A program made the translations under genes and the position numbers. Below are positions 34,427 to 51,200 of a stretch of DNA of 64,000 bases, in pieces; within the stretch, counting starts at the first letter, position 1; each line of letters opens with the position of its first letter. Origin of the DNA: Eledone cirrhosa (lineage: Eukaryota); contig OZ024743.1 of assembly GCA_964016885.1 (NCBI GenBank), forward strand, positions 275,466,001-275,530,000. The letters run 5' to 3'. The notes under the pieces are model-generated. The model made no database searches, was not told the DNA's origin, and saw only the letters and a program-made list of their open reading frames with translations.

Positions 34427-36124
34427 CAAGGGTGCCCTCTCTCCTCCCTTCTGTATGTAATGACTCTAGAGCCACTGCTGCGGAATTTGGAGTTGTTGCA
34501 GGGCATCCCGTTGGAACCGGGATTGCGGAAAGCGGTGTCGGCCTACGCCGATGACGTAACAGTAATGGTGTCGACGGCCTCGGAAATCGGGGTGATCGGC
34601 ACCTTACTGGAGGAGTACGAAAGATTTACAGGGGCTAAGCTGAACCGGGACAAGTCGATCGGTCTGCAACTCGGCACGTGGAGGGGCAGATTGATGCCCT
34701 CCGATGGCGTCGTCTGGCGCTGGACGGTGGAGAAGAACTGGGGTGAGGTAACGAACAGGGTGTTTGCACTGACCCAGAAGTGGGCCGAGTGCAAACTGTC
34801 CCTGAAAGGTCGGGCGGAGGTGGCGAACACTTATATAGCGTCCGTCATCTACTACCGCATGACCATCGTGCCTTGCCCAAGGGAAACACTCGCCAAAATG
34901 GAGCGCGCACTCTTCCAATTCCTTTGGAAGAAGCGGGCTCCTATGGTGAGGAGATCCATCTGCTGTCAACACTCTTCGAAAGGAGGGCTGGGGATGCCGT
35001 GTCTAATGATACGTAAACACGCATTAAGGCTACGGCACCTCCAGGTATCCCTCACCGGTCAACCGGTGTGGGCCCCGTTTGTGAGGCGAGCCTTTCCCAG
35101 ACTCGTCTCGCTCACCGAGCTGCAATCCTGGGTCAAGCAAAGATCGAGAAAACTGGGCGCCTGGCACACCGAGTGTGCCCAGGCGCTCACGGCTCTCTGG
35201 CAGGCGGACCCGGCTGTCAGTGGAGAATCCACCTCGTCATTCTATAGAGGGCTGGTGGTTAGCAGGTGCGACGACGCCCTCGGAGAAGCCCTAGGCATGG
35301 AGGAAGACGAACTGGCCAACCTGTTCGGTAGGACATTCAGTCCGGGACCCATGGATAACTTCCAGAGGTCCCTGGCCTGGGAGTGCTACCGAAGGGCTCT
35401 TCCCGTTTGAGAAAGGCTCTACAGACACGGGCGCTCGGGTAGGGACCCCTCGAAAAAGATCTGTCCCAGATGCGTGCGCGACGAGGAAACCGTTGCACAC
35501 GCATAGGTACATTGCTCGGGCATTGCCGATCTGTGGGGCTATGTCGAACAACTGCTGTCAAGAGTGGGACCGATCCGGCTGACCACCGAGTCTATTGTAA
35601 CGATCAAGCCGCCTCCCCTCTTCAAAAACGAAGAAGAGGCGGTGTTTCTGTGCGTAATAGCCATGGCGAAAGAGGTTGTATGGGGGACGCGTCTGAAAGG
35701 ACTGAGGTCAGACACCTTTCTCTCTGGCCAACAACTGGTCCGTTTCTTCCGATATCATTTCGGAAGAAGGATCAAGTTGGAGAGAGAGGTGCTGCACCCC
35801 AGCCGTTTTTATGAAAGATGGATGAAAGTGGCGAGAATGGGCCTTCACTCTACATCAGACTATAGGTGAGGAAATGAAAGATCAAGGGAGCACCCCCTCT
35901 CTGTGCTCCTGAGGAGAAGGGTTGCACACTTTTTTCGGGGGTGTGTGCGACCCCCAAGGCGCCTCCTCCCTATTGAGGATTTTGTTATTAAATTTATTTT
36001 TGTTATATTTTATATTTATATCTAGTTATTGCCTCCTCCTTATTGAGGACGCCTTTTTATGTAAACTCCTCCCATTGTACTTGTCCCACCTTTTGATGCC
36101 CTGGTGGCAAATAAAAAGAAAGTT
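34427..36124 (+). mobile_element. Tx1-like element A, 5'-truncated and inactivated
   Basis: Starts at QGCPLS; YADD; 16-aa internal deletion; stop ending 35410; 3' UTR ends AATAAAAAGAAAGTT+(ATCT)n. Confidence 0.92.
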
Positions 36125-36396
36125 ATCTATCTATCTATCTATCTATCTATCTATCTATCTATCTATCTATCTCTCTATCAGTCGTGTGTCACTTCGCGGA
36201 GAAGTTTCCGTTAATTTATGTAAGGAAAAAACGTGAGTTTTTAGTTCAATTTTATATCATTGTGTAACTTGACCACCCGTCTGGACCTTCAGGTGGTGGG
36301 TCAACTCATTTTCGCCCCTTCAGGGGCGGAATATCCATTTAAAAAATTTTTCTCCATCGAATCTTGGAAAAAATATTGTAAAATTTTGATTACGTT

Positions 36397-47800: not shown

Positions 47801-48291
47801 ACCGGGGGGCTCTACCCGTTCGAGAGAGGCACTACAGATACGGGCGCCCGGGCAGGGATCCCTCGAAAAAGATTTGCCCTAGATGAGTGCGTCACGAAGA
47901 AACCGTTGCGCACGCATTGGTGCAATGTCCGGGCGTGGCTGATCTGTGGGGCTACGCCGAACGACTGCTGTCGCGGGTGGCGCCGATTCAATTGACCGCC
48001 GAGTCCGTGATGACAATCAAACCGCCTCTCCTCTTCACAAAGGAAGCAAAGGCGGTTTTTCTGTGCGTAATAGCCATGTTGAAAGAGGTTGTTTGGTGGA
48101 CACGATTGAAAGGTCTGAGGTCAGGCAACTTCCTCTCTGGCCATAGTCTGGTCTACTTCTTCCGATATCACTTCGGAAGAAGGATAAGAATGGAGAGAGA
48201 GGTGCTTGGCCACAGGCAGTTTTATGAAAGGTGGGTGATAGTGGCGAGAATGGCTCGTGTAAATGGGCCTTCTCTGTATACCATCGTGTAG
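44866..48291 (+). pseudogene. ORF2 of element C (APE-RT) with in-frame TGA at 47884-47886
   Basis: Colinear with B ORF2; CPR* where B has CPRC; frame continues to VNGPSLYTIV*. Confidence 0.92.
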
Positions 48292-51200
48292 GTAAAGAAG
48301 TGAAGGAGAGGGGAGCACCTTCTCCATGTGCTCCCCGGGCAAAGGATTGCACACTTTTTCGGGGGTGTGTGCAACCCCCATCACGTCCCCTCCCTTTTGA
48401 GGTTGTTTTCGATTATTTTCATTTTTACTCGATTTTTTACTCGATTGTATGTAAACTCCCCCTTTGTATTTGTCCCTTCTTTTTATGCCTTTATGGTAAA
48501 TAAAGAAATATATCTATCTATCTATGTCTGTCTGTCAGCCTGTCTGCCTTTCTCTCTCTCTATCCTTTTGTTATCTATCTAGCCATACGTCTTTCTATCT
48601 TTCTTTTTATCTATCTATCAATCTATTTGTCCGTATGTCTTTCTTTTTATTTCTAATTATCTGTCTATTTATCTGTCTATCTGTCTGTCTGTCTATCTAT
48701 ATCTATCTGTCAATCTATATCTGTCTGCCCATCCTCCATTCACATCTATTCATCTTTTTGTTTGTCTGTGTTTGTCTCTATCTGCCACTTCTCTCTTAAT
48801 ATATGTCTTCTTCTTCTCTATCACCATATACATACATCAATGTAATAAGACAAATGCGTTATATTTAAGATAGCGAGTTCACACCACTACATTATTTTAT
48901 TATTTTTTTGTGTGATTTTAGCCATTGGATTGTGGCCAGAGTTTATAGTCGATTATATCTTAAATACTTTATCTATTGGGCGTAACTGGTGTTAGTTATC
49001 ACGTCTTCCTCTTTTCTCTCATCTCCTTGTTTCTTTCTATCTCCTCTCTTTCCCCATTTCTCTTCTTCTCTCTGTCTCTCCCTCTGTCTTCCGTTCCCTC
49101 TATCTCCCCCTATATTTTCCCATCTCTCTTCTTCACTCTGTCTCCATCTCTTGCCCTCTCTCTTTCCTCTCTCTCTCTCACTCTCTGTCTTCCATCTCTG
49201 TCTTCTTCTCCCTCTATCTTCCTCCTCTGCCTCTCTTTCTCTCCCTCTATCTTCCACTCCCCTCTCTGTCTCCTCCCCCTCTCTCTGTATACTTCCCCCT
49301 ACTCTCCTCATCTCTCCCTGCTCACCTTCCATGGACTACTTTCATTAAATGTTTATTCTTACTTTTAAATCCTCATCAGGCTAATTGTTGTATTATGGAC
49401 TGTTGTGAAATGAAATCCTCCCACCATCAACGCCAGAATTATCAACCACCAACCACCAAAGACCCTAACAGTCTCCCACCACCATCCACCCACTACTACC
49501 ACCACCATTACCACTACCACCATAACCACACAATGATTCCCCACGAGCACCACTATCACCACCTTTACAACAATAAACACCAGCCTCCACCGACAATACG
49601 ACCACTATGACAACAACAACACAAACACCACCATCACTACCACCATCACCACCACCATCACCACCAACATCACCACCAACAACAACACCATCACCACCGC
49701 CTCCACTACCACCGCCAACATCACCATCATCACCGCCACCAACACCGACACTTCAACAACATAAGCTAAACAAGCTATAGCTTAGCAGCCCCCCCCCCCA
49801 CACACACACACAAAACAGCGACAATTTGTCGCTGACATAGGACATCTGGACATATAAAGGGCCCCATTATCTCAAATAGCTTAGGGCCTCATCAAATCTA
49901 AATCAGGCCCTGATCATCATCATCATCATCATCATCATCATCATCGTCATCGGCGTCGTTGTCACCTTCATCAGAGTCACTATCATCATCAACATCGACG
50001 TCGTTGTCACCATCATCATTCTCTTCGTCGTCGTCGTCATCGTCGCCATCGTCGTCGTCGTCAATGTCGTCGCCATCGTTGTGGTCGTCGTCATCAATTC
50101 CACCCCAGTCTGGTCATATTTCTCTCTTATCAGTACCAATACCCACCCCACCCCCTTGTTTATACGACAACCTACCCGACCGAGCGTAATTCATTAAATC
50201 CTGCTAATACACTTATCGAACTAGACGCACGCATGCACAAACATGCACACAGCTCACACACATATACACACACATACATAAGCACACATCCGAAAACTCA
50301 CATATGTGCACATACACATGCATTCACACACACACACACAAGCATATAACCATATATTCAAGTCTAGATACATAGAAGCACACAGGAGTGCAAAGTATCG
50401 TACACACATACACTTACATACATACATATGCACACACATATACGTACACAGACACGCGCGCGCACATTCGTACACATACACATACATGTATATACATATA
50501 CTCACAAACATATGCAGGTACGCACATACACACGTACACAGCACCGCGCCTCCATCACATTAGCACACACACACAACAATATCTACACGGAGAGGAATAC
50601 TTACACACGTATACAAACATACTCTCGTACACACACACACACACGCAACCTCTCTCTCACACACACACACTCTCTCTCTCTCACACACAGTCTCTCTCAC
50701 ACACACACACACTCTCTCTTACACACACCCTCTCTCTCTCTCTCTTTCACACACACACTCAATCTCACACACACTCTCTTTGGCATACACACCCTCTCTC
50801 TCTCTCATACACACTCTCTCTCTCACACACACATACACATCCTCTCTCTCTCACAGGCACCCTTTCTCTCACACACACACCCTCTCTCTCTCACAGGTAC
50901 CCTCTCTCACACACACACCCTCTCTCTCTCTCTCTCTCTCCCTATCTCATACACACACACACACACACCCTCTCTCACACACACACCCGCTCTCTCTCTC
51001 TCACACACACATTCCCTCTCTCTCTCTCTCTCTCTCTCACACACACACACTCTCTCTCTCTCTCTCTCACCCCCTCTCTCTCTCTCACACACACACACAC
51101 TCTCTCGCCCCCCCTCTCTCTCTCACAGACTCACGAGACACAAACCTATGCACAGCACGCTACAACATACACTCGACACGAATCACTGAAATATCGTTTC

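Follow-up and report, generated by a model that had tools for sequence, protein, structure and literature searches.

The closest described systems are the Kibi and Koshi elements of teleost fish and the crocodilian Tx1 families, all of the Tx1 clade, whose targets are given in passages of PMC4494074 and PMC3812793 as (TC)n, (TTC)n and (TTCC)n/(TTTC)n. Here we describe a family of retrotransposons without long terminal repeats (non-LTR) in Eledone cirrhosa, first noticed in a stretch of 64,000 nucleotides (contig OZ024743.1 of GCA_964016885.1, positions 275,466,001 to 275,530,000 of the forward strand; hereafter the window). Like Kibi, Koshi and the crocodilian families, its members are elements with an apurinic/apyrimidinic endonuclease (APE) that sit in microsatellites. 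The published targets are pyrimidine-rich, whereas this family occupies (TATC)n, equivalently (ATCT)n, and its sister families (TGTC)n and (ATT)n; the distinction follows from the published descriptions of the other elements rather than from their sequences. We find that (ATCT)n is the insertion target of the family and not an encoded tail.

The APE endonuclease of Tx1L of Xenopus laevis is sequence-specific and has a hairpin loop of 11 residues, according to passages of PMC1950540, and the corresponding loop of the present family (T189-S199) also spans 11 residues. In the passages of PMC4494074, the Tx1L target is the Tx1D DNA transposon and no microsatellite. The loop tip of Tx1L, RDGH, is absent from the family here. 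Other clades (R4, R1 and NeSL-related) include Dong, Waldo, Mino and Togen. These are microsatellite-targeting elements as well, on TAA, ACAY, AC and TG, respectively, and passages of PMC3812793 and PMC4640811 attribute a GATA or GACA target to none of them; Dong has the TAA/ATT target in common with two of the sister families described below, E and F. SART1Bm and R1Bm (R1 clade) are APE elements in tandem repeats, for which passages of PMC7265360 describe pairing between RNA and target as an aid to priming.

The units of the window and the tracts between them are as follows (ORF, open reading frame; RRM, RNA recognition motif; RT, reverse transcriptase; bracketed intervals omit the terminal dinucleotide).

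34407..34426, + strand: 20 nt that match the 3′ region of the family ORF2, located at unit A's 5′ junction, where a TATC tract is absent
34427..36123, + strand: unit A, subfamily A, 5′-truncated and with internal deletions, ending AATAAAAAGAAA+GT (34427-36121)
36124..36177, + strand: (TATC)12 tract, then TCTCTA
36178..42023, + strand: unit B, intact full-length element with ORF1 and ORF2 both open, ending AATAAAGAAA+TA (36178-42021)
36397..38313, + strand: ORF1 of B, 638 aa, predicted tandem RRM-like domains and one CX2CX4HX4C knuckle
38347..41784, + strand: ORF2 of B, 1145 aa, APE endonuclease, RT (YADD at 686) and C-terminal CCHC (C1008)
42024..42065, + strand: (TATC)n target tract, 11 units
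42066..42163, + strand: B-type 3′ end, 96 nt, plus TC (42066-42161)
42164..42185, + strand: (TATC)5 target tract
42186..42571, + strand: B-type 3′ end, 384 nt, plus TC (42186-42569)
42572..42687, + strand: (TATC)28 target tract
42688..48510, + strand: unit C, broken copy of subfamily C at full length, with AATAAAGAAA+TA as its end (42688-48508)
48511..48525, + strand: (TATC)3, then degenerate TATC/TGTC tract

A preliminary description of the window had listed five same-strand units, and we found all of them at 34427-48510, including the two short B-type 3′ ends. As it had said, each closes with AATAAA..GAAA plus two bases and runs into (TATC)n without poly(A) (12, 11, 5, 28 and 3 units, in window order), and the last four, unlike unit A, are also preceded by such a tract. 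Pairwise identities of 79% (A/B), 79% (A/C) and 78% (B/C) confirm its view of A, B and C as diverged subfamilies; the two short pieces are 98-99% identical to B, and unit A is 90% identical to a full-length A copy (L184). One point needs amendment. A is truncated, B intact and C full length as described, but C nonetheless carries broken ORFs, with a frameshift in ORF1, a stop at 47884 in ORF2 and a 12-nt deletion. The many CA, TA and CT tracts are indeed empty, family sequence being found nowhere else in the 64 kb, and of the six tracts in the window with three or more ATCT repeats, five lie next to the units.

To extend these observations to the genome (3.0 Gb), we searched with the 3′ untranslated regions of B, C and A and with the B 5′ end, and took the best 40 of 427, 908, 1,518 and 1,054 candidates, respectively. 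The loci and their extensions merged into 137 segments (902 kb) with 237 distinct 3′ ends. The sequence NN+TATCT, where NN is the junction dinucleotide, continues 219 of these ends, and two or more units follow in 191; tracts of five or more units are seen in 112. By search query, TATCT follows 29/30 (B), 27/30 (C) and 26/30 (A) ends. The first unit is TATC in 220 of the 237, TCTC in 2 and TGTC in 1. Poly(A) is found at none (0/237), in contrast to SART1Bm, which inserts with poly(A). NN is largely subfamily-specific (GT in A; TA or TC in B and C; CA in a B variant), and a conserved AATAAA stands 6-8 nt before the element end.

Exact 21-mers of the B end number 6,480 in the whole genome. NN+TATCT comes next in 5,774 (89%) and NN+TATCTATCT, two units, in 4,343 (67%), leaving one third (2,137) without a second full unit. 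The background, computed from 20 random 10-kb stretches, is 0.17% per position for TATCT and 0.006% for TATCTATCT, and a reversed-pattern control gave no match in the whole genome. Passages of PMC4494074 recognize a target preference in Tx1 elements where one sequence type makes up >20% of flanks; the share of TATCT here is 89%. The (TC)n and (TTC)n targets of Kibi and Koshi are not those of this family. In 200 kb of random DNA we counted 139 TA, 47 CA, 32 TC and 2 TATC tracts, the last thus being 16-70 times rarer than the others.

At the 5′ side, both flanks and a match to a reference were available for 198 of the 237 copies, and 144 of these were resolved (at least 95% identity to the reference). 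TATCT lies within 26 nt of the 5′ junction in 170/198 copies overall and in 134/144 resolved copies, compared to a background of 4.1% (0.29% for two units). Among the 83 junctions that are not behind another copy, 73 have TATCT and 66 have two units; for the truncated copies in this group, the count is 39 of 48. Informative target-site duplications were found in 22 cases (two rows being one segmental duplicate), with lengths of 11-23 bp, mostly 17-19. They begin at the base after NN, and C precedes the start in 18/22, mostly as C|TATCT. Deviant bases at +1 and +4 are present in both copies of some duplications, indicating that these bases derive from the target. One insertion (L014) lies in another repeat, and in all 11 of the fetched paralogues the duplicated stretch is present in one copy, which contains a single TATCT; beyond the duplication, this insertion added only GAAA+TA. 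None of the 22 informative junctions has extra units and one site clearly does, while four rows seemed to have additional units, three of which we treated as ambiguous and did not count because they match the run of TC with which B itself begins.

Because TATCT stands in the 5′ flanks, duplications start at TATCT and the empty site already has it, (ATCT)n is the target. The site is centred on C|TATCT and a long array is not required. The preliminary description had proposed such targeting, to be abandoned if most copies lacked ATCT on the 5′ side, and most have it (134/144; 73/83). Its further suggestion that each insertion regenerates the target holds in part: the target is renewed by the ~18-bp duplication, not by an appended tail. 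A separate feature of the 5′ junctions is that in 38/44 full-length B copies TCTCTA or a longer run of TC separates the element from the TATC tract, suggesting that the B transcript may start inside the upstream tract. The last bases of the window tract at 36124..36177, common to most full-length B copies, may be part of B.

Two or more 3′ ends occur in 65/137 segments, and both orientations in only 1/137. The insertions at C8:28739146 and C5:37932224 show how stacks grow: each occupies the final TATCT preceding an older copy, whose first bases it duplicated. A common 5′ end is shared by 4/57 adjacent pairs, and the other 53/57 differ in subfamily or truncation point, which, with the exact phase and strand, upholds the earlier view of repeated insertion rather than simple tandem duplication. 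Two copies joined via CA+TATCT are also present in contigs from a sequencing run that bears the label of a different organism (X6; one junction). The sole tail-to-tail pair (L082, G000:C3:286.458 Mb) sits at the point of its tract at which TATC changes to GATA. Adjacent truncated copies with an identical truncation point and 4-5 bases different are seen at G000:C5:45148428/45148834 and C2:87896023; one of these pairs also differs in the junction dinucleotide. Microhomology as a source of equal 5′ ends is not claimed here, since it rests on 2 truncated pairs. Several copies of a long interspersed nuclear element (LINE) that by a motif is putatively RTE-like have a (TAGA)n-type tail (L017/L206, L222, L076, L284, L290, L301, L344, L388). 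B copies sit in opposite orientation inside such tails at L017 and L388, and hence another LINE may seed targets for B.

The organization of the element is that of the L1 group (L1 and Tx1), with two ORFs and an ORF2 comprising APE, RT and a C-terminal CCHC. Consistent with this assignment, 81/144 resolved copies are 5′-truncated, and there are the 22 target-site duplications and the empty site. In Pfam, ORF2 matches Exo_endo_phos (3.5e-12), RVT_1 (4.6e-27) and zf-RVT (6e-6, slightly below its cut-off). Its best match in the PDB is human L1 ORF2 (3e-51 over residues 4-856), R2 scoring far lower. Endonuclease (EN) residues in B are N10, E39, Y112, D141, N143, T189, S199, D202 and H227, and the catalytic ones align with human L1 ORF2, as does the 11-residue loop; a single-sequence model of EN had a predicted local distance difference test (pLDDT) score of 40 and was not used.

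ORF1 proteins of the Tx1 clade have RRM-type domains and one or more CCHC knuckles. The ORF1 core model here (pLDDT 80) resembles tandem-RRM proteins (best E 2e-5, template-modelling score about 0.3-0.4), matches in the Atlas are to zf-CCHC and ZCCHC3-type clusters (0.90-0.92), and the single CCHC knuckle, below the Pfam cut-off, is kept in 10/10 rows; as modelled, ORF1 would thus have the Tx1-type combination. A homolog search with ORF1 gave no match, and BLASTP of ORF1 against the fish element P0043 was not significant. In a quick RT tree of 78 rows, with no named Tx1 reference among them, the family falls inside a 46-row group (SH-like approximate likelihood-ratio test, 95) that includes P0043 (ZCCHC3-type domains, long branch), with plant L1s apart; named fish matches are only 25-27% identical. 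From its sequence, the family is best described as an L1-group non-LTR retrotransposon of Tx1 type, and it may belong to the Tx1 clade as strictly defined. A sister clade of ORF2 proteins (P0002-P0037) is ~40% identical, some of its clusters having hundreds of members; a metagenome scan with one relative (P0005) gave no locus.

We then examined 30 loci for each of three 3′ ends taken from random stretches, which represent families G, E and F. Family G is ~81% identical to B in DNA. Its first unit is TGTC in 24/30 and TATC in 6/30 (8 of the 30 being in one tandem array), compared to TGTC in 1/237 for the TATC families, and all 7 full-length G 5′ ends lie behind TGTC-type tracts. G (L224, L298-L334) also forms tandem arrays of full-length copies ~5.6 kb apart, for example at G000:C3:358.73-358.78 Mb, and ORF2 is intact in L330 and L334. 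Families E and F (L219, L229, L238-L297, L335-L347) are 65-70% identical in DNA, end in ..GAAA(A/T)+CATTATT and are stacked in (ATT)n tracts. ATT runs follow 30/30 E ends, and F ends read TCATTATT in 22/30, the remainder being near variants. For E, 7/17 5′ boundaries have ATT; on visual inspection, the remaining 10 resemble points of internal deletion.

In a tree of whole ORF2 (9 rows), the topology is (B,(C,(A,G))), with G sister to A (98/95), and monophyly of the TATC families is rejected by the approximately unbiased (AU) test (p-AU 4.5e-7 for whole ORF2; 0.003 for EN alone). On this evidence, the TGTC family nests within the TATC clade. The quick RT tree places F as sister to the A/B/C/G clade and E further out, which suggests that the order of targets was ATT, then TATC, then TGTC. 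In its EN, G carries the fixed differences P120S and N235H and has N at position 193 of the loop, where B has R, C has H and A has R or L.

A SINE-like (short interspersed nuclear element) repeat of ~190 nt is present at window positions 51703-52069 and at many loci, with 20 matches in 200 kb of random DNA and none in Rfam. Its 3′ end resembles that of family F, and 14/50 copies have exact duplications starting with ATTA (0.5% in shuffled pairs). It was probably mobilized by the ATT-targeting lineage.

With a probability of about 0.8, we favour a mechanism in which 3′ ends are joined to TATCT at a fixed phase by an APE nick at GATA^GATA and priming of reverse transcription there, both steps being read from the junctions. 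The element ends in GAAA plus a subfamily-specific dinucleotide, and the next base opens the duplication also present at the 5′ junction. The first nick would fall on the GATA strand at the start of the duplication (C|TATCT on the top strand) and the second ~18 bp downstream on the TATC strand. Because AATAAA lies only 6-8 nt from the element end, a few read-through UAUC bases probably help priming. An insertion in a pure tract would add 4-5 units, and the duplication would leave target on both sides, so that subsequent insertions line up head to tail in a single orientation, as they do in the window. Specificity would then be set by EN alone, and the move from (ATT)n to (TATC)n targets, followed in family G by one to (TGTC)n, likely reflects small EN changes.

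Several observations weigh against this mechanism. TATCT is missing from 706/6,480 B ends (11%) and from 10/144 resolved 5′ junctions. In a position-ordered sample, only 10/17 5′ boundaries have TATCT, the seven misses comprising, by eye, five internal deletion points, one shifted boundary and one unexplained case. The 3′ side at C2:121628000 has about 20 units above the normal duplication. The 237 ends were drawn from top-identity matches (best 40 of 427-1,518 per search). Finally, the EN of G is 78-84% identical to those of A, B and C, which are 71-76% identical among themselves; G is thus as close to them as they are to each other, and EN may not be the only specificity determinant.

This last point bears on the strongest alternative, in which EN nicks T-rich alternating repeats broadly and read-through microsatellite in the RNA 3′ end selects nicks by pairing, the target being whatever repeat holds the master copy. 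The lack of poly(A) despite a conserved AATAAA, the few fixed EN changes in G, a tendency for T to occupy every second base of duplicated sites and the RNA-target pairing described for SART1Bm and R1Bm (passages of PMC7265360) are all in its favour. However, single-unit targets gain no units, though a free pairing register would often add some, and insertion proceeds despite target-derived mismatches at +1 and +4. Moreover, G retains TATC in 6/30 first units and differs in the tip of its hairpin loop, a structure that alters nicking profiles in L1-EN grafts (passages of PMC1950540). We therefore consider RNA guidance unlikely, and equally so the corresponding history, in which the lineage's own read-through tail set its target and, with EN nearly unchanged, (ATT)n gave way first to (TATC)n and then to (TGTC)n. 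EN nicking specificity and RNA selection may also act together.

It is very improbable that the element merely appends (ATCT)n, lands at random and is stacked later. Long tracts after the 3′ end are common (112/237) and one site has extra units, as such a tail would predict, but the 5′ flanks of solitary copies (73/83), the duplications and the empty site refute it. More improbable still, and refuted for the family as a whole, is the view that copies accumulated passively, or by tandem duplication, where the DNA is rich in repeats, since phase and strand are nucleotide-exact, the far commoner TA, CA and TC tracts are seldom used and 53/57 neighbours differ, notwithstanding the 4/57 pairs with a common 5′ end and the G array on C3.

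Returning to the targeted family, both ORFs are open in 28/43 full-length B copies, all 98.8-100% identical to the B of the window. B is young and probably still active. Intact ORF2s exist in B, C and G. Exact ends for one pattern number 13,330 in the whole genome, and lineage-related sequence is found in 7/20 random 10-kb stretches.

Elsewhere in the window, a 25-bp minisatellite of ~69 copies (32560-34322) lies directly upstream of unit A, and a 28-bp minisatellite lies at 28334-29243. A 198-aa frame (31420-32016) resembles the RT C-terminal fragment of another LINE and has no Pfam match.

For Octopus vulgaris, a repeat annotation lists 13 recently active L1-Tx1 families (passages of PMC13282606); those passages and one supplement give no target for them. 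Our literature searches, which did not extend to Repbase or the supplements of PMC4494074 (these may list more targets), turned up no non-LTR element that targets GATA/ATCT. In our judgement there is about one chance in three that Repbase already notes a GATA target for this family. To the microsatellite targets of Tx1-type elements in the published descriptions covered, the present families add GATA and GACA. The nesting of targets within one genome, an addition to what the window showed, likely records recent switches.

The choice of microsatellite targets by APE-type retrotransposons has been called poorly understood (passages of PMC3812793). In this one genome, a resolved tree carries (ATT)n, (TATC)n and (TGTC)n as targets, two of which differ by one base. 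With intact ORF2s available in B, C and G, swaps of EN residues or of the RNA 3′ repeat would separate protein from RNA specificity. If true, an RNA-programmed target would make the lineage an insertion system selectable by RNA, within the genome of an animal that has a large one. The lineage is large and is probably the motor of the abundant SINE-like repeat.

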